From a virus (taxonomy: Duplodnaviria; Caudoviricetes): a DNA stretch of 64,000 nt. Location of the stretch: the IMG/VR virus record IMGVR_UViG_3300032332_001510, positions 1 to 64,000 of that record, one strand, 5' to 3'. The position numbers and the translations under genes were made by a program. Below the pieces are notes generated by a model. It was not told where the DNA came from, did no database searches, and saw nothing but the letters and a program-made list of their open reading frames with translations. Below are positions 2,640-57,555 of this stretch, one piece after another. How positions within the stretch are numbered: the stretch's first letter is position 1; each line of letters begins with the position of its first letter.

Positions 2640-4601
2640 TTACCTAATAGGACAGGCTCCAGTTGAGCAATCTTGATCTACAATTTCGTCAAAACTATTA
2701 GCATCGTCTAAAATGACTTGTCGTAATTGAGCTGCATAATCTTTGTAAGTACGCTCGTCTACGACTTCTTGCGGCAAGTAGAGATAGCCTAGATCTTTAG
2801 CTGTTTTTGTTGGATCAGTTCTATAGATAAAACTTACACCTACATAACAATCCCAATTATCTAAGAGCCAACTAATAATTGCTGAAATTTCACCGGGATC
2901 ATAACTAATAGTAACACTAGTATTTTGTTGATTCCACGAAGTTTGTAGCAACTTATAACGTTCTAGCTGAGTAACTGCACTTTCCAAATTAACTTCTTTA
3001 CCATCAACTTTATCAAATACTACGCCGTCCCAACAAACCGGAAAAGTTACTAGCACACCGCTATCGTCAACTGGATGGTTGATAACTTTATAGTTTGCAT
3101 CACGCAGCTTTTCTACTACCGGATCATGCTTTGAAAACTGTACATTGTTGAAAATGTACTTGCCTAGTGGTTTGTGAACACCCTCGGTAGTATCCATGAT
3201 CTTGCTTAGTGTACCACTAGGCTTTACACAAGTTACATTTTTAGGACTTGGTAACCCTAACTCTTGAGCCATTCCTACTGCAGCACTAGTTGCTGTACGT
3301 TTTAAGTATTCATAGTCGTAGCTGCCCATATCTGGACGCATTGCAATGCCAGTTAAACCTACACCGCATAGTCGTAAAAAGTAGTTATTTAAATGCCAAG
3401 ACTCTTGCAAGATACCGTCCAACAAGTCAACACAAGTTTGACGATAATTGGCACGAGCAGCTAAACGAATAGCTGCATGTAGTCCAGCATTGTCGCCCTT
3501 AAACTTAGCTAAATCAGTTTCTGTTAGATTACAAAAACTCTTATTGCCTAATAGGATTTCTACACAAGGATTAGCACCTTTAAACCAAGGTGCGCGTCGT
3601 AGTGCCTCTACAGCATTAATAAATCCTGGCTCCGAACCACCAGCTTCTTGCATTAGTTGAAAAATCTTTTCTAAGTCTTCACGCTGTGGTTTTTCATTGA
3701 ATACTAGCGAGTTATTACTTTGAGTACGATGTTGATTATTGTGTAACCACCAGTCTTTTTTAGCTACCGCAAACTCTTCCCATTCAGGTTGACCATAGTC
3801 AAAAAGAGCGATTTCAGCACTTCGCCGACTGCTAAGAATAGTACCAAGATGATTAACAATGTCCAGAATATCCATCCTAGTAAGTAGACTATCAGCCCTG
3901 CCATTAAGAATATTGGCAATAGCAAGATATGCAGTACTAATTGCAGTGTCACCTGAAGAAATCCATCCATAACCTTTTAACCTTTCTCCTGCGGGACGTA
4001 GTTGACTAAAATCTAAAACTAGTGTATCGGCGGGATACTTTCCAGCCATGAGTTTGCCAATACTTTTAGCCCAAGCCTCTGCACTATCACCAATTTGTAG
4101 TGTCCAAGTTTTAGTTTCTAAGTCCCAAGTTTCTGTATTGTACTCATTACCGCCTTTTTGGGTACGAGTACTACGAATGGTTTTGATATTCTTAATTGGC
4201 TTTGAAAAACCATTAAGAGTACCTACAATAGGCTTAAAGCCTACGCCACAACCTTGTAGTAATAACCATAGTACATCTACTACATCATATACAGTTTCTA
4301 CATGAGTAAAGCTACAATTAAACTGACTAGCTTCACGCGTCTTGGCTACTTGTGTACCACCAAGCCATAAAGTTCTACCACTCATCAAAACTTTTCTGTC
4401 AAGCATTAGTTGTTCTAGGTCATATAGCTCTGCATATTCTTGATCATTAAGTTCGCGATTAAGTGCACGCTCCCATAGCCATGCTTGATGATCAATTACA
4501 CGGGCAACTGTTTCTTGCCAAGTTTCAAATTGTTTTCCGTCGTCTGAAGTCGGCCTGTTATAGGTACGACGTGTAATTACTTGTGCTCTTGTACTAACCA
4601 T
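2640..4601 (-). CDS. nrdJ: class II (B12-dependent) ribonucleotide reductase, monomeric RTPR type
   Basis: FNCSF, NPCVE..FCNLTE, KPSGTLS motifs and C-terminal CSTGACPIR redox pair. Confidence 0.92.
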   Translation of the reverse strand: MVSTRAQVITRRTYNRPTSDDGKQFETWQETVARVIDHQAWLWERALNRELNDQEYAELYDLEQLMLDRKVLMSGRTLWLGGTQVAKTREASQFNCSFTHVETVYDVVDVLWLLLQGCGVGFKPIVGTLNGFSKPIKNIKTIRSTRTQKGGNEYNTETWDLETKTWTLQIGDSAEAWAKSIGKLMAGKYPADTLVLDFSQLRPAGERLKGYGWISSGDTAISTAYLAIANILNGRADSLLTRMDILDIVNHLGTILSSRRSAEIALFDYGQPEWEEFAVAKKDWWLHNNQHRTQSNNSLVFNEKPQREDLEKIFQLMQEAGGSEPGFINAVEALRRAPWFKGANPCVEILLGNKSFCNLTETDLAKFKGDNAGLHAAIRLAARANYRQTCVDLLDGILQESWHLNNYFLRLCGVGLTGIAMRPDMGSYDYEYLKRTATSAAVGMAQELGLPSPKNVTCVKPSGTLSKIMDTTEGVHKPLGKYIFNNVQFSKHDPVVEKLRDANYKVINHPVDDSGVLVTFPVCWDGVVFDKVDGKEVNLESAVTQLERYKLLQTSWNQQNTSVTISYDPGEISAIISWLLDNWDCYVGVSFIYRTDPTKTAKDLGYLYLPQEVVDERTYKDYAAQLRQVILDDANSFDEIVDQDCSTGACPIR

Positions 4602-4602
4602 A

Positions 4603-4980
4603 TCAATCCTTGCTATACTCTTTTAAAAACGGTTTAAGATTAGGTGCTTGCCAACCTACTGGTTTAAGAACTTTGCCGTCTTCACGTTTACGCACCTTGC
4701 CAGTTTCTTTGTCAATTTTGGCAAAATTAGTACTCATAACTTCACGCCAGGCACTTTCGCCATCTGCGCCCATACTGTGAACAGCGCCAATAGTGACAAC
4801 CAAGATGTCAATAAGAGCGTCTAGTGTTTCTAATTGGTCGTGATTATTTACTGCTTCAGTAAGCTCTTTAAATTCTTCTTCAATCAAACCTACATACATG
4901 GCAAATTGTTGTTGATCAAATCTGCCTGTAACTTGATCACAAGCACGCATAAAGTTTTCTTGATCTCTAAATAAATTCAT
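4603..4980 (-). CDS. MazG-like nucleotide pyrophosphohydrolase
   Basis: IEEEFKEL, DALIDILVV, EVMSTNFAK, REDGKVLKP motifs. Confidence 0.85.
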   Translation of the reverse strand: MNLFRDQENFMRACDQVTGRFDQQQFAMYVGLIEEEFKELTEAVNNHDQLETLDALIDILVVTIGAVHSMGADGESAWREVMSTNFAKIDKETGKVRKREDGKVLKPVGWQAPNLKPFLKEYSKD

Positions 4981-25191: not shown

Positions 25192-25762
25192 GTTCTTTAC
25201 GCTTAGCCTCACAAAGTGTTTCTACACGATTGCTTACTTCTTCACTGTGTAACCACAAGTCTTTGTTTTCTAGCAAGCTGTCAATTTCCTTGCTAGTTAA
25301 AAAATCTTTGTAAATGTGTTGTAGGAATTGTCTAGACCACTCACGTTCAAAAACTGCTTGATCATAGATTTCACCACCCTTACCAAAGATTCCACCACTG
25401 TAGTTGTGAAACATAAATAAACTATGTGGAGTTACCTCAAACACATCGGCACATAAAAAGATCATTGTAGCAGCACTCATACAGCTGCCTTCAACACTAC
25501 ATACTACAGTAGCCGGTGTTTCAGCAAGTACGCGCATAAATTGTATTGCAGTGTTTAGGTCACCACCGCAACTATTGATATAAATTTTTACTACGTCTTG
25601 GTCACTAGCACTACGAATAGTATTAAACCATTCAATGTAATCCTCAGGACCAGTAATTAAACCACTTAAGTAAAATTCGTAAAGTGCACTAGTACATTTA
25701 CGAAACCCACGACTAATACCAGTGTCGAGGACAAAATCATCATCTGTTGCGTTTTTAGTCAT
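25157..25762 (-). CDS. clpP: ClpP-like serine protease
   Basis: YINSCGGD, GSCMSAA (Ser), MFHNYS (His), DLWL motifs. Confidence 0.85.
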   Translation of the reverse strand: MTKNATDDDFVLDTGISRGFRKCTSALYEFYLSGLITGPEDYIEWFNTIRSASDQDVVKIYINSCGGDLNTAIQFMRVLAETPATVVCSVEGSCMSAATMIFLCADVFEVTPHSLFMFHNYSGGIFGKGGEIYDQAVFEREWSRQFLQHIYKDFLTSKEIDSLLENKDLWLHSEEVSNRVETLCEAKRKEHDDSLSANLPN

Positions 25763-25774
25763 AGGAGTATTGTA

Positions 25775-25807
25775 TAAAAAAGCCCCCCTTGGTTACAAGG
25801 CGGGGGC
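25775..25807 (-). terminator. terminator at the 3' end of the tmRNA coding piece
   Basis: GCCCCCGCCTTGTAACCAAGGGGGGC-TTTTTT. Confidence 0.8.
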
Positions 25808-26075
25808 AGACCTCGGCACTAGCTTAAGCGGCTAGGGCAAATACCTCATCGTTGGCATTTATATAGTTTGCTTCTTTTGCGGAGATCGCCTACCGAGTTG
25901 TCCACTTGCATACTTATCACACTGTCGAAACCATGACTGGCCCATCAAAAGCACACCACACTTACAGAGGTAACACGTACCATGGCTATGCATCGCCTTA
26001 GTGTGCTTTTGGTGGACCAGGTGGGAGTCGAACCCACGTCCAGCGCGCCTTTCGGCTCGTTTCATACAACCATAT
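25780..26075 (-). ncRNA. ssrA: circularly permuted (two-piece) tmRNA: acceptor piece about 26075-26010, intervening segment 26009-25944, coding piece 25943 to about 25780
   Basis: T-arm GTGGGTTCGACTCCCAC then CTGGTCC-ACCA lies upstream of the GGGCCAG 5' end; stem has the G3-U70 Ala determinant; tag ORF 25856-25824 encodes ANDEVFALAA*. Confidence 0.93.
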
Positions 26076-26158
26076 AAAAATACTCTAGTTTGGATTCAAA
26101 CCTTGTCCTAGTATTGTCTACTTGCGTGTCTCACCACACCGACCAGAATATTTTTATA

Positions 26159-41697: not shown

Positions 41698-42321
41698 ATG
41701 CTAGAAACTATATGTGATGTGCTTAAACAGGGCTATGACAGGAACTGGAGTACTAGTCGTGACAGTAATGTTAGTATCCGACATTACGGTCGCGACTACT
41801 TTTTTATTACACCTACCGGTGTTCGTAAGCAAACCATGCAGCCTGATCAGTTTAAAAAGATTAGGGTGGCCGGGGATAGTTGGGAAGAGCTGGAGTATAC
41901 ACCTATTAGCCGCAACCTAAAGCCTAGTGGTGAACTTCCACTGCACTTTGGCCTACAAAAACACATGGGCCAGCACAGCGACGATACCCGAGTGGTAGTC
42001 CATCTTCATCCTACTTACACAGTAGCTGCTATGCACGCTGGCATTGAGTTAGCTGACCTGGTCAAAGACTTTCCTGAGCTTAGCCGATATACCAAAGTAG
42101 CTAAAAATGTTGGCGATCAACCGCCTATTAGCCAGGAATTGGCAACGGCTTGTCACCAGCAGCTGGAGGTTGATCCCTACAGTGGTTACGTTGCCTACGA
42201 CATTGTAGGTCTTAAGGGTCATGGAGTTGTAGCTATCGACCGTAGCCCTTGGCGGGCTTATGAACATATTGAGCGTTTAGAACATATTTGTAAGATTGTG
42301 CTGGTATCGGGGAATTACTAA
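41698..42321 (+). CDS. class II aldolase/adducin-family protein
   Basis: FFITPTGV.K, ELPLH, VVHLHP, GHGVV zinc-binding motifs. Confidence 0.85.
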   Translation: MLETICDVLKQGYDRNWSTSRDSNVSIRHYGRDYFFITPTGVRKQTMQPDQFKKIRVAGDSWEELEYTPISRNLKPSGELPLHFGLQKHMGQHSDDTRVVVHLHPTYTVAAMHAGIELADLVKDFPELSRYTKVAKNVGDQPPISQELATACHQQLEVDPYSGYVAYDIVGLKGHGVVAIDRSPWRAYEHIERLEHICKIVLVSGNY

Positions 42322-52839: not shown

Positions 52840-52868
52840 TTGACACTGCTGCCCTAAAGTGTTATACT
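52840..52868 (+). promoter_or_regulatory. sigma70-type promoter for the plcP/agt/terminase operon
   Basis: TTGACA-17-TATACT. Confidence 0.8.
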
Positions 52869-52890
52869 CTAGTAAACTGGAGGGGTAACC

Positions 52891-53043
52891 ATGGAAATTA
52901 TCGAACTAATGCTAAAAGCTTGGCCAGTATTTGTGGCCTTTATTATGATTGTGGTCCTTTTCGCCAAAGCAGACATGCGCCTAGGCGTGTTGGAAGACAA
53001 AGTAAAAACCCTATTCGACCTGTACAATAAGTCTGGCAAATAA
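52891..53043 (+). CDS. 50-aa TM plus coiled-coil protein (not in ORF track)
   Basis: MEIIELMLKAWPVFVAFIMIVVLFAKADMRLGVLEDKVKTLFDLYNKSGK*; GGAGGGG RBS. Confidence 0.75.
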   Translation: MEIIELMLKAWPVFVAFIMIVVLFAKADMRLGVLEDKVKTLFDLYNKSGK

Positions 53044-53045
53044 CT

Positions 53046-53834
53046 GTGGCACACTACCGCGCCATTTTTATCAGTGACGTGCACTTAGGTACCAAAGCTA
53101 GTAAAGCTGAGTATTTGAGTAGTTTCCTAAAAACCAATACCTGCGATGAACTTTACTTGGTAGGCGATATTATCGATGGTTGGAAGGTCAAGCAAAATAA
53201 GTTACGCTGGACTAATCAACACACCAATGTAGTCAGACACGTTTTAGCCAAAGCCAATCGTGAAAAGACCCGAGTAGTCTATGTAGCCGGTAATCACGAC
53301 GAGTTTCTTAGACCACTAATCACCTATGGATTACAATTTGGTCGTATAGAGGTGGTAAACCAGTGTGAATACGTAGACTTTAATGGTCGCCGCTGGTTAG
53401 TAACTCACGGCGATATGTTTGACGGCATTACACGCCTAGCACCTTGGTTAGCTTGGTTAGGTGACAGTGCTTATGACTTCGTACTAGGTTTAAACACACA
53501 CTTTAATCAGTGGCGGCATCGTTTAGGCTTTGGCTACTGGAGTCTATCACAGTGGCTAAAGTCTCGAGTAAAGCGCGCAGTAGATTTTATCTTTAAGTTC
53601 GAGCAAACTATTACCCAGTATGCACACAAGCGCAAGTTTTTTGGTGTAATCTGTGGTCATATTCATCAGGCTGAAATTAAACTGGTCGGTGATATTGGCT
53701 ATATGAATAGTGGCGATTGGGTTGAAAGCTGCACTGCACTGGTAGAGCATGAAAATGGTGTGTGGGAAATAATTACTTGGAGGCCTAAAGATGTGGTTAC
53801 TAATCATCTTAGCAGTACATCAGATGGACCCTAA
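53046..53834 (+). CDS. PlcP-like phospholipase C / LpxH-family metallophosphoesterase
   Basis: ISDVHLG, VGDIIDGW, GNHDE, HGDMFD, YWSLS, CGHIH, NSGDWVESCTALVE. Confidence 0.88.
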   Translation: MAHYRAIFISDVHLGTKASKAEYLSSFLKTNTCDELYLVGDIIDGWKVKQNKLRWTNQHTNVVRHVLAKANREKTRVVYVAGNHDEFLRPLITYGLQFGRIEVVNQCEYVDFNGRRWLVTHGDMFDGITRLAPWLAWLGDSAYDFVLGLNTHFNQWRHRLGFGYWSLSQWLKSRVKRAVDFIFKFEQTITQYAHKRKFFGVICGHIHQAEIKLVGDIGYMNSGDWVESCTALVEHENGVWEIITWRPKDVVTNHLSSTSDGP

Positions 53835-53964
53835 GGACGTGCCAGGCCGGGTAACCTTAGAATTCCGTACAGAACAGGAATGCTTGGCTGCACAACATAG
53901 CCTACAGTACCAGCTTAAGTTTCCACAATTTAGGGTTATAGCACAATGTCAAAAACAATATTAA
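53791..53964 (+). CDS. 57-aa exported peptide with two Cys (not in ORF track)
   Basis: MWLLIILAVHQMDPKDVPGRVTLEFRTEQECLAAQHSLQYQLKFPQFRVIAQCQKQY*; GGAGG RBS at 7 nt spacing. Confidence 0.7.
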   Translation: MWLLIILAVHQMDPKDVPGRVTLEFRTEQECLAAQHSLQYQLKFPQFRVIAQCQKQY

Positions 53965-54947
53965 TAGTAACTGATAATGAGCCCCAGCAAATTAACGGCG
54001 TGGTTACAACGTTCCACAACCTGGAACGTTGGGCAGATCGCCATGGCTACGAGTTTGTATATTGTGATCCCCGGCAGTTCCCTAATTGTGGCGCTCCTGG
54101 CTATGGCGATATTAGGCTATCGTGGCCTAGTAAAATTGGCCAAATACTTGAGGGGATAAACCCTGATTACGTACATATTGCGACGGAGGGGCCGCTGGGG
54201 CTAGCAGCCCGTTGCTGGATGGATCGGCATGGTTGGCGATATAATACCAGCTATCATACTAAAATACCAGAAGCCTTAAAACGCTACTATGGCATACCAG
54301 AATCTTGGACTTATCGTTACCTGCGCTGGTTTCACAAGCACAGTGGCAAGGTTTTAGCTACTACGGTCAGCATGGTAGACGAGCTTAAGCAACAGGGCTT
54401 TTCCGGAACTATTGTGCCCTGGACGCGTGGCGTAGATCGCCAGCAGTTTTATCCGCTGGAGCATGGGCGTAAAACACCATATCCAACACTCTTATGGGTT
54501 GGCAGAGTTGCCCCCGAAAAGTCTTGCGAAGACTTTTGCCAGCTAGACTACTTGGGTGCTAAAAAGATTGTGGTTGGTGATGGGCCACAACTAAAGTATT
54601 TAGCGGCAAAATATCCTGAAGTCCAATTTGTGGGTATGCAAACCGGCGATGCACTAGCCAGCTACTATCAACAAGCAGATTGCTTGGTTTTTACCAGTCG
54701 CTGGGATACTTTTGGTATAGTAATGTTAGAGGCCATGGCGTGTGGTACACCTGTGGCAGCTTACCCAGTTTGTGGTCCCAAAGACGTTATTGAACTAGAC
54801 AGAACTGGCTATACTAGTCCAGATCTTAAATTAGCCGTGGCACGTGCACTGGCAATTCCCCGTCACGTAGTAGTCGTAGCCAGCTATCGTTGGTCGTGGG
54901 AAAAATGCTGGCAGATATTTGAATATAATCTAGTAAGGAGACTGTAA
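53946..54947 (+). CDS. GT4 glycosyltransferase, Agt/MgdA-like glycolipid synthase
   Basis: ILIVTD..QINGVV.T, HIATEGPLG, SYHTK.PE, WTRGVD, GRVAPEK, DTFGIVMLEAMACGTPVAAYPV. Confidence 0.88.
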   Translation: MSKTILIVTDNEPQQINGVVTTFHNLERWADRHGYEFVYCDPRQFPNCGAPGYGDIRLSWPSKIGQILEGINPDYVHIATEGPLGLAARCWMDRHGWRYNTSYHTKIPEALKRYYGIPESWTYRYLRWFHKHSGKVLATTVSMVDELKQQGFSGTIVPWTRGVDRQQFYPLEHGRKTPYPTLLWVGRVAPEKSCEDFCQLDYLGAKKIVVGDGPQLKYLAAKYPEVQFVGMQTGDALASYYQQADCLVFTSRWDTFGIVMLEAMACGTPVAAYPVCGPKDVIELDRTGYTSPDLKLAVARALAIPRHVVVVASYRWSWEKCWQIFEYNLVRRL

Positions 54948-55267
54948 TGAGTGATGAAAAACTGCAAGAAGCACATGCCAAAGGTCAGCTAATTGAAAAG
55001 ATTAGCTTTGCACTGCTACCACTGTTATTTACCTGCGTAGTCTACTTAATGACTGCACTGCAAAACCTACAACACGACGTTACCATCTTAAACGGTAAAA
55101 TTAGCTTAGTGGTAACCAGCGATAATAAGCAGGCTACTAATACTGGTGCTGAATTAGCACGTGAAAAACTGCGCCAAGATTTAGAAAAAGAAATCCAGGC
55201 AAATCGTGACTTTATCCACTTAAATCGTGAACGTATTGTTATCCTAGAAGAAAAGACAAGAAAATGA
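54947..55267 (+). CDS. TM plus coiled-coil hypothetical protein
   Basis: One TM helix then a heptad-rich tail. Confidence 0.65.
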   Translation: MSDEKLQEAHAKGQLIEKISFALLPLLFTCVVYLMTALQNLQHDVTILNGKISLVVTSDNKQATNTGAELAREKLRQDLEKEIQANRDFIHLNRERIVILEEKTRK

Positions 55268-55746
55268 ACCTGACCCCAACCAGTGCACCTGCAGAGGTAC
55301 TGGAAATTTCACCAGAAGCACTGGAAGTAGCCAACTGTTACTTGCAGTGCCAAGATGCTCGTGCCGTAGCAGATAACCTATGTTTACCAGTTGAGTCGGT
55401 ATCAGGAATCCTTGCCCGCCGCGAGGTCAAAGCCTATATTAACCAGGTATTTTTTGACCTAGGCTTTAACAACCGTTTCAAGATGCGCAGTGCTATGGAC
55501 GCAGTCTTAAAACGCAAGTTTCAGGAAATGGAAGAGGCGGATGTAGGCTCAAACAAAGACATTGCTGAATTGCTAGCATTATCACATAAAATGTCAATGG
55601 AACTACTAGATCGCGAGATTCAACTGGAAAAGCTGCGTGCCGAGCGTGCTGGACCTAAATCGCAAGTAAATGTGCAGATCAATGAAGGCGGAGACGGAAC
55701 TAAATACGGAGCACTTATTTCACGGCTCCTAGGAGACAAACTATAA
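55264..55746 (+). CDS. terS: terminase small subunit (T5-like)
   Basis: Immediately precedes terL; ISPE.LEVAN.YL..., DI.ELL...HKM, QVNVQIN..Y..L..RL. Confidence 0.82.
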   Translation: MNLTPTSAPAEVLEISPEALEVANCYLQCQDARAVADNLCLPVESVSGILARREVKAYINQVFFDLGFNNRFKMRSAMDAVLKRKFQEMEEADVGSNKDIAELLALSHKMSMELLDREIQLEKLRAERAGPKSQVNVQINEGGDGTKYGALISRLLGDKL

Positions 55747-57035
55747 TGCTTAAAGTTTCTAGACCCGATGTAGACTGCGATGAAATCACAGAGTTTCCAC
55801 TTGAAAGCCGTTTTATTAAACTGCCTATTACTAACTACTTGAAGCTGTTAGGTGCTTGGGATTCAATGAATCGTCCACAGATTGCCCTAATCAACGCTAT
55901 TAACGACCCTAAATACCGCTTTGTTTGCGCTGCACTAGCCAGGCGACTAGGCAAAACCTATATCGCTAACATTATTGCACAACTAGTCTCCTTAGTCCCC
56001 AAGTGCAATGTTTTAATCATCTCGCCAAACTATAACTTGAGTTCGATTTCATTTGAGCTGCAACGTAAGTTTATCCGTCACTTTGATCTTGAAGTGGAGC
56101 GAGATAACTTAAAGGATAAAGTTGTAGAGCTGTCAAACGGCAGCACTATACGCATGGGTTCCTTATCGACAGTAGACAGCACAGTTGGCCGCAGTTATCA
56201 AATTATCTTATTTGACGAGGCTGCCCTAGGCAGTGACGGTGAGTCGGCATTTAATGTGCAGCTACGTCCAACTTTGGACAGACCTAATTCAAAAGCCATT
56301 TTTATTTCGACACCCCGCGGCCAACAAAACTGGTTTAGTAAATTTTATCAGCGTGGGTTTAGTGACGACTATCCTGAATGGTGTTCGATTACTGCTGACT
56401 ACACTGAAAACTCGCGTATGGCTGAATCGGATGTGCAGGAAGCACGTCGTAGTATGTCAAAAGCAGAATTTGAACAAGAATACTTAGCCAGCTTTACAGT
56501 GTTTGAGGGTCAAATCTATAATTTTAACCGTGAGGCAAGTATTTGTGAATACCAACACAAAGAAGGTTGTGAGTACATTGCTGGCTGTGATCCCGGCTAT
56601 CGTGATGCTACTGCTTTCGTGGTTATTAGTTATAATCCTGTTAGTGACCAGTTTCATATCGTAGATGAGTATTTGCGGAGTGAGGCTACCACAGACAAGC
56701 ATGCCCAAGCATTTCGCGAGTACTTAGACAAGTGGCAGGTAGAAGTAGTATTTATTGATAGTGCAGCAGCACAATTTGCTGGTGACCTTGCCTATACTTA
56801 CAACATTTCTACTACTAAAGCCAAAAAAGATGTCTTGCCCGGTATTGCCTATGTGCAAACATTAATAGAAACTAATAGGTTAAAAGTAGCACCACATTGC
56901 ATAAATGTCCTAGATGTAATGGACCAGTATCGTTGGGATAATCGTGAAAATACACAGCGTGAGCGCCCAGTACACGATAAATTCTCACACATGGCTGATG
57001 CTATCCGTTATGCACTTTACACATATACTATATAG
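55746..57035 (+). CDS. terL: terminase large subunit
   Basis: ARRLGKT, FDEAA, ISTPRG, GCDPG, SHMADAIRYA. Confidence 0.96.
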   Translation: MLKVSRPDVDCDEITEFPLESRFIKLPITNYLKLLGAWDSMNRPQIALINAINDPKYRFVCAALARRLGKTYIANIIAQLVSLVPKCNVLIISPNYNLSSISFELQRKFIRHFDLEVERDNLKDKVVELSNGSTIRMGSLSTVDSTVGRSYQIILFDEAALGSDGESAFNVQLRPTLDRPNSKAIFISTPRGQQNWFSKFYQRGFSDDYPEWCSITADYTENSRMAESDVQEARRSMSKAEFEQEYLASFTVFEGQIYNFNREASICEYQHKEGCEYIAGCDPGYRDATAFVVISYNPVSDQFHIVDEYLRSEATTDKHAQAFREYLDKWQVEVVFIDSAAAQFAGDLAYTYNISTTKAKKDVLPGIAYVQTLIETNRLKVAPHCINVLDVMDQYRWDNRENTQRERPVHDKFSHMADAIRYALYTYTI

Positions 57036-57114
57036 GTCATAAAAATTTTTACGTTGACTTATTAGTGCTAGTAGTGTACAATGGCTGTATTATAAAAAAT
57101 TATTGAGCTCTGGC

Positions 57115-57555
57115 ATGGAAAAATCACAATACTACCTAGAATTACAGCGTGTTTTTGCTAGTGAGTTTAGCTTTTATCTTAAAACAGCAAACTTTCACTG
57201 GAACGTAGAGGGTCAGCTGTTTTATGAGCTGCACTTAATGTTTGAGCGCATCTACAACGAAGTATTAGAGTCAATTGATACCTATGCTGAAGAGTTACGC
57301 GCACTACAAATTACTACACCAGCCAGCTTAAGTGCTTTTAGTCGATTAACCTATATCAGCGATGAAAATATGCCCGGCGACTGGAAGTCTATGGTACAAG
57401 AGCTGCTAATGGATTCAGATACAATGGCTATGAAGTTTCAGCAACTATTTATGGTTGCTGAAGAATTTGGTGATCACGGATTGTCAAACTTTTTAGCAGA
57501 TCGCCAGGATGCACACAAAAAGCATAGTTGGATGCTACGTGCTAGCCTAAAGTAA
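57115..57555 (+). CDS. dps: Dps / mini-ferritin
   Basis: FHWNVEG..FYELH.MFE.IY, IDTYAEELRAL, KH.WML. Confidence 0.92.
   Translation: MEKSQYYLELQRVFASEFSFYLKTANFHWNVEGQLFYELHLMFERIYNEVLESIDTYAEELRALQITTPASLSAFSRLTYISDENMPGDWKSMVQELLMDSDTMAMKFQQLFMVAEEFGDHGLSNFLADRQDAHKKHSWMLRASLK

Follow-up and report, generated by a model that had tools for sequence, protein, structure and literature searches.

The virus record IMGVR_UViG_3300032332_001510 (Duplodnaviria; Caudoviricetes), from an uncultured lake phage, carries, upstream of its terminase genes, a compact cassette encoding a PlcP-type metallophosphoesterase, a conserved 57-amino-acid (aa) protein with two cysteines (p57) and a glycosyltransferase (GT) of the Agt/GTcp type. 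Here, the window refers to the whole stretch of DNA that was analysed, namely positions 1 to 64,000 of this record. The window phage probably uses the cassette to strip phosphorus from the membrane of its host in the course of infection. We put the probability at roughly 0.6 that the cassette swaps host phospholipid for glycolipid, with the freed phosphorus passing into phage DNA.

All three genes lie on the plus strand. The esterase gene (53046–53834) encodes a predicted phospholipase C of 262 aa, and begins with a GTG codon only 2 nucleotides (nt) past the stop codon of the preceding gene, orf50. The p57 gene (53791–53964) overlaps the esterase gene by 44 nt and the following GT4 gene by 19 nt. 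The GT4 gene (53946–54947) encodes a predicted diacylglycerol glycosyltransferase of 333 aa. The esterase and GT open reading frames (ORFs) are intact and tightly coupled, with a promoter on their 5' side and terS and terL on their 3' side. An earlier annotation of this DNA, made from the letters and a list of ORFs (hereafter, the original prediction), had described an esterase, a 57-aa ORF and a GT4 upstream of the terminase genes, and all three ORFs were recovered in this arrangement. The motifs on which it had based the esterase assignment are likewise all in place, with GDIIDGW at residue 40, HGDMFD at 121, YWSLS at 164 and GDWVESCTALVE at 223.

Pfam assigns the esterase to Metallophos. 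Against the NCBIfam equivalog models of LpxH, the esterase scored 41–43 bits for NF003743 (43.1) and 30.6 bits for TIGR01854, and thus fell below both cut-offs (134 and 190, respectively). We searched five bacterial genomes containing a homologue, from two Pseudomonas, a Limnohabitans, a Burkholderiaceae and a Thiomicrorhabdus. Each encodes one true LpxH (227–335 bits) together with a second paralogue (38–55 bits), and in all five the homologue of the window esterase is this second, non-LpxH paralogue. Within the genus of P. pseudonitroreducens, all 13 sampled genomes possess a 53–55% identical homologue, which is the single non-LpxH paralogue, while the LpxH proteins of the same genomes share only 24–25% identity with the window esterase. 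In the maximum-likelihood tree, the PlcP-type clade separates from the LpxH paralogues with a support of 100. The sub-cut-off LpxH scores, the match to the second paralogue and the separate clade together identify the window esterase, at the level of sequence, as PlcP-type and not LpxH. In agreement with the PlcP-like identity put forward in the original prediction, the esterase grouped with the PlcP-type paralogue, away from LpxH, rather than clustering with the UDP-diacylglucosamine hydrolases.

A linked GT gene and Pho-box control are published traits of plcP in marine bacteria (PMC4796936) and in P. aeruginosa (PMC8528852). Among the cellular homologues, 57 of 80 bacterial loci have a homologue of the window GT next to the esterase gene, in nearly every case immediately 3' of it. 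A Pho box (up to three mismatches, within 260 nt upstream) was found in 26 of 63 loci, as compared to 3 of 315 control windows. In locus L059, the non-LpxH paralogue has an agt homologue directly on its 3' side, as in PA3219-PA3218 (PMC8528852). Since the non-LpxH paralogue is preceded by a Pho box and linked to agt, it appears to be PlcP itself, and orthology of the window esterase to the characterised PlcP enzymes is strongly indicated by these comparisons. The named close homologues all come from metagenome-assembled genomes labelled 'Betaproteobacteria bacterium'.

The metal-binding motifs of the esterase (DxH, GD, GNHD/E, H and GHxH) are complete, and their eight metal-binding residues, D11, H13, D41, N83, H84, H121, H205 and H207, are invariant in an alignment of 52 sequences. 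An AlphaFold model built on 52 sequences reached a pLDDT of 88.6 (the single-sequence fold reached only 46 and was unusable). In the model, residues 127–195 are inserted into the metallophosphoesterase core as a helical lid. Given that this fold is LpxH-like, includes the helical lid and has LpxH as each of its top 23 matches in the PDB, the modelled esterase keeps the lipid-holding architecture.

The GT contains the Glyco_transf_4 and Glycos_transf_1 domains of Pfam, the domain pair of a GT-B fold GT4. It carries G18, G82, G85, H104, R187, K191, D254, T255, F256, G257 and E262, corresponding to the essential residues of GTcp. In the SAR11 GTcp, mutation of these residues abolishes activity, the reference set including Gly16, Gly82 and Gly85 (PMC8231724). 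H104 and D254 constitute a His-Asp dyad, with Asp in place of the usual Glu. D254 lies within FTSRWDTFG, conforming to the F.S..DTFG motif, while GRVAPEKS at residue 186 conforms to GRVAxEK. The best genome-wide match of the window GT is the plcP-adjacent transferase: in genome G001 it scored 240 bits, followed by 104 bits for the next match (Agt2-like by rank) and 42 bits for the third. The trees of the two enzymes are congruent. In that of the GT, the window protein groups with its close relatives (support 100), and this clade is nested in a freshwater viral and metagenomic clade (support 99) that itself sits within the plcP-linked GT4s. The conserved GTcp catalytic residues and the plcP-adjacent best match agree with the Agt-like GT4 of the original prediction, and the GT grouped with the plcP-linked lipid GT4s rather than with non-lipid GT4s. 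We therefore assign the window GT, on its residues and phylogenetic placement, to the Agt/GTcp-type GT4s. Sugar specificity varies even between characterised Agt/GTcp members (PMC8231724). With the metal-binding motifs of the esterase and the GTcp residues of the GT in place, both enzymes look active.

The small middle gene was confined, in the loci compared, to viral or metagenomic DNA: p57 occurred in 85 such loci, as against none of 113 bacterial ones, and its neighbours in Atlas are viral hypothetical proteins. Among 39 sequences, M1, W2, A8, D16, P18, C31, K43 and C53 are invariant. The original prediction had taken p57 for an exported peptide, which is at most a tentative reading, since the N-terminus has a hydrophobic stretch of only nine residues, without a basic n-region. 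A complex prediction for the esterase and p57 gave a score of 0.01, which provides no answer either way. We also considered whether p57 might be a frame-shifted C-terminus of the esterase; this was ruled out by its separate conserved frame, its own start and a dN/dS of ~0.19.

The cassette is widespread among phages. About 15 contigs encode 84–91% identical proteins in the same gene order, and a profile scan detected the esterase in at least 479 IMG/VR contigs. Among the best 80 of these, the gene directly downstream of the esterase encodes a GT4 in 34 and a small GT2 in its place in 38, so that a GT4 or GT2 adjoins the esterase in 72 of 80 viral loci; the 57-aa gene is present in 39. The same patterns were observed in 80 metagenome contigs. 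The GT2 partner matched no family above cut-off in an NCBIfam search. The carriers include three complete phages of 160–170 kb with terminal repeats, as well as jumbo phages (345 and 360 kb) with completeness ratings of 99–100%, all with terminase present. The esterase and the GT form congruent clades in which freshwater phage contigs predominate.

Comparison with close relatives revealed that the cassette is accessory. In locus L316, whose terL is 92% identical, orf50 is directly followed by terS (4228–4859), and the esterase, p57, GT and p106 (the gene that follows the cassette in the window) are all absent from this interval, providing a natural cassette-minus genotype. Among the relatives found through terL, most of those at 64–73% identity likewise lack the cassette, and some relatives have it upstream of terS. 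A second group of relatives (terL ~75%), comprising L019 (3977–6086), L021, L030, L221, L237 and L268, instead carries the esterase and a 237-aa GT2 between terS and terL. The p106 gene is absent in L005 and L228, and adjoins orf50 in L189 and L278; because the homologues are mutually adjacent in the latter two, the cassette looks to have been inserted between orf50 and p106. Estimated within the group to which the window belongs, dN/dS comes to ~0.08 (esterase), ~0.13 (GT) and ~0.19 (p57); with dS near 1, these values are rough. Taken together, these sequence comparisons show a cassette that is accessory and under purifying selection, and probably mobile.

Transcription of the cassette appears to depend on the phage backbone. 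The packaging operon starts with a consensus sigma-70 promoter (52840–52868, plus strand), TTGACA-17 nt-TATACT with an extended TG element and 11 of 12 matches, consistent with the strong promoter of the original prediction. This promoter is exactly conserved at the same position in the group-1 relatives, and also in relatives lacking the cassette. No Pho box turned up anywhere in the window, nor in the 18 loci of its own group (group 1), and near the module both the consensus and the relaxed searches were negative. The window cassette therefore relies, as far as its upstream sequence indicates, on the backbone promoter and not on a Pho box, and for this reason would be expressed on the schedule of the phage whatever the phosphate status of the host. 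In the sister loci, by contrast, the direct repeat TGT[AC]A[TC]-N5-TGT[AC]A[TC], which resembles a Pho box, is placed at a fixed distance (38–61 nt) on the 5' side of the esterase. It occurs in 32 of 76 viral loci (L257, L236, L252, L273 and L298 are examples) and in 25 of 76 metagenome loci (57 of 152 combined), against a background of ~0.002 per 150 nt. Thus, the identification of the two enzymes in the original prediction holds, while 'phosphorus-starvation module' is only a putative label for this phage, whose cassette lacks a Pho box.

From these observations, and by analogy with the bacterial PlcP-Agt pathway, we infer the following activities, timing and benefit. PlcP, a predicted Mn-dependent enzyme, would remove the phosphorylated head group from the phosphatidyl lipids of the host to yield diacylglycerol, to which the GT4 would add glucose or glucuronate from a host UDP-sugar. 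The membrane would thereby remain closed while phosphorus is freed for phage nucleotide and DNA synthesis, and expression would be timed by the phage from the packaging-operon promoter. This phosphorus-mining reading is favored by the Pho boxes in the sister cassettes, and by the Pelagibacter phage Mosig, where the homologue neighbours an annotated phosphate ABC transporter gene.

Several points weigh against phosphorus mining. The product of PlcP is the phospho-head group, not phosphate, and a phosphatase, PstS and UDP-glucose dehydrogenase were not found in the phage record, which is rated 73% complete. Co-transcription with the terminase genes might come too late for much phosphorus to be reused. 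The window and the group-1 loci lack the Pho box, and a close relative, L316, manages without the cassette. Furthermore, the case for orthology to PlcP is built from genus-level homologues, synteny and Pho boxes, rather than from named characterised sequences.

The missing Pho box also favors a different benefit from the same predicted enzymes, in which the altered, glycolipid-rich envelope itself would serve the phage, by changing receptor display, blocking superinfection, or shielding the infected cell, for as long as it stays unlysed, against grazers or membrane-active agents. Expression in the window lineage, without a Pho box, seems to be of a constitutive type. Lipid renovation alters membrane proteins and phage adsorption (PMC9804370) as well as susceptibility to grazers (PMC9457565), and phage glycosyltransferases are usually interpreted as surface modifiers (PMC7029224). 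However, the sister phage cassettes have kept their Pho boxes, the Mosig copy lies next to the annotated phosphate transporter gene, and a lytic phage that makes these enzymes along with its packaging genes would gain little from late exclusion. We consider an envelope benefit rather unlikely, although it is the main rival to phosphorus mining. A role in lysis is far less probable. The esterase would in that case weaken the inner membrane to aid or time lysis, with the GT merely buffering the accumulating diacylglycerol. The position of the cassette in a late packaging operon, flanked by two small membrane proteins, would fit such a role, but relatives without the cassette must still lyse their hosts, and the same cassette is under Pho-box control in other phages.

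The remaining explanations concern what the enzymes act on. Both enzymes come from families, the metallophosphoesterases and the GT4s, that are very versatile, and many phage cassettes couple the esterase with a small GT2 whose specificity is unassigned. The esterase might accordingly cleave a nucleotide signal or another phosphodiester, and the GT might modify phage DNA, virion proteins or a polysaccharide. Such non-glycerolipid targets are improbable, in view of the lipid-binding lid retained in the esterase model, the congruence of the esterase and GT trees, a gene order identical to that of the bacterial plcP-agt operon and the conservation of residues tied to diacylglycerol-GT activity. 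The reading found in databases, in which LpxH and a lipopolysaccharide (LPS) glycosyltransferase jointly modify lipid A or LPS, draws on the naming of the homologues as LpxH in JGI, NCBI and phage records, on LpxH being the nearest solved fold, and on virome papers that place viral 'lpxH' under LPS synthesis. We reject it as highly implausible: the esterase scores far below both equivalog cut-offs, it clusters, in a separate clade, with the second paralogue that bacteria possess alongside an LpxH of their own, and the GT bears the signature of the diacylglycerol-GT clade.

Beyond phosphorus mining by the window phage, a broader reading can be offered only tentatively. PlcP, p57 and the glycosyltransferase may constitute an old module, maintained by phages, that moves among unrelated freshwater phages of about 100 kb, 160–170 kb and about 350 kb. 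p57 would be a virus-specific targeting or regulating part, and in the window lineage the module, free of PhoB control, would force the lipid swap at any phosphate level.

The closest known system is the bacterial PlcP-Agt operon, with examples in S. meliloti (SMc00171), Phaeobacter (MED193_17359), SAR11 HTCC7211 (PB7211_983/PB7211_960), P. aeruginosa (PA3219-PA3218) and M. trichosporium OB3b (PMC4796936, PMC8528852, PMC8231724, PMC9239053). The cassette shares with it both enzyme families, the gene order, the short or overlapping junction and the catalytic residues, and its cellular homologues are Pho-box controlled. In contrast, the window version resides in the packaging operon of a lytic-type tailed phage, lacks a Pho box and has the additional p57 gene between the two enzymes. 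Its identity to bacterial proteins, among species-representative genomes, is 47–56% for the esterase and 38–47% for the GT. LpxH resembles the esterase in its core and helical lid and is the nearest solved structure, but differs in the identity, score and clade described above. O-antigen- and DNA-modifying glycosyltransferases of phages are also phage-borne sugar transferases that alter host or phage surfaces; they belong to another clade, whereas the window GT shows the signature of diacylglycerol GTs and is paired with a predicted phospholipase.

Homologues of the esterase also occur in cultured phages, in Pelagibacter phage Mosig (Mosig_00120) and as the 'LpxH' of Synechococcus phage S-SRM01, with identities of 44% and 35%, respectively. 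In the tree, both are placed with PlcP rather than with LpxH, S-SRM01 on a very long branch, and no glycosyltransferase was found adjacent to either. In Mosig (L001, 3903–5738), the gene is annotated as 'UDP-2,3-diacylglucosamine hydrolase' and is divergent from the phosphate ABC transporter gene. Neither record recognises its homologue as PlcP, and virome tables list the viral copies solely under 'lpxH, LPS biosynthesis'. According to the original prediction, the pair was not known to have been described as a phage auxiliary pathway. In keeping with this, we found no such description in the papers searched, and none linking PlcP to auxiliary metabolic genes or to phage-encoded lipid remodelling.

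The cassette is embedded in a close-packed transcription unit. It is preceded by orf50 (52891–53043), which encodes a small hydrophobic protein of 50 aa; this is a backbone gene, outside the cassette and 86–98% conserved. On the 3' side lies the gene for p106 (54947–55267), a 106-aa membrane or coiled-coil protein that is a variable neighbour, overlaps the GT4 gene by 1 nt and is translationally coupled to both the GT and terS. terS and terL (55264–57035) follow in the same unit, and all of these genes are on the plus strand. Downstream of terL come a Dps/ferritin-like gene (57103–57555), which is conserved in relatives, and then the HNH and portal genes. The terS and terL genes overlap in the window, and are separated by an insert of ~570 bp in several close relatives, L006, L007, L013 and L018.

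The full record is a 77.6-kb IMG/VR entry, of which the window is a part. A search of sequencing runs listed none of RNA for it; the DNA runs listed, in which it had small shares, were freshwater or lake metagenomes and are no guide to habitat or expression. The window encodes a full replication set consisting of a ribonucleotide reductase, SbcCD, two helicases, a DNA polymerase, a primase, a ligase and ThyX, as well as tRNAs and a tmRNA. The tmRNA (25733–26102) specifies the tag ANDEVFALAA, which might help in naming the host. phoH, which the original prediction had also listed, is present at 1707–2399 on the plus strand (210 bits) and is regarded here as context only. Other genes accompany the cassette elsewhere. 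In L023 (5200–10675), the record of the 345-kb jumbo phage (99% complete, with terminase), a fatty-acid desaturase gene lies just on the 5' side of the cassette, and on its 3' side are genes for a solute-binding protein and for a sodium:dicarboxylate symporter. Many other loci likewise have a homologous desaturase near the cassette. A gene for UDP-glucose dehydrogenase, whose product UDP-glucuronate is the donor for glucuronosyl-diacylglycerol, is present in L211 (1180–2418), a few kb upstream of an esterase-GT4 pair. In L019, a class II aldolase gene lies on the 3' side of the esterase-GT2 pair, while that of the window is located elsewhere (41698–42321).

Phosphorus often limits the productivity of lakes and oceans, as well as phage DNA synthesis. 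The pstS, phoA and phoH genes of cyanophages and pelagiphages are host-derived accessory genes, often Pho-box controlled, that are thought to ease this limitation, and to our knowledge the known phage phosphorus genes act on uptake. The window cassette would differ in tapping an internal pool, the membrane lipids. If our reading is correct, a lipid swap run by the phage opens the host membrane as an internal reserve, and viruses would account for some of the glycolipid signal, as well as for some of the metagenomic reads assigned to 'plcP' and 'lpxH'. The assignment corrects a systematic mis-annotation, as viral 'LpxH' proteins are currently filed under LPS synthesis. The cassette is common and tightly defined, and ready comparisons are offered by natural variants that either carry or lack it, and that either have or lack a Pho box. 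Should the module indeed act in this way, phage infection in lakes would have a sizeable and so far overlooked influence on lipid composition and on the turnover of phosphorus.

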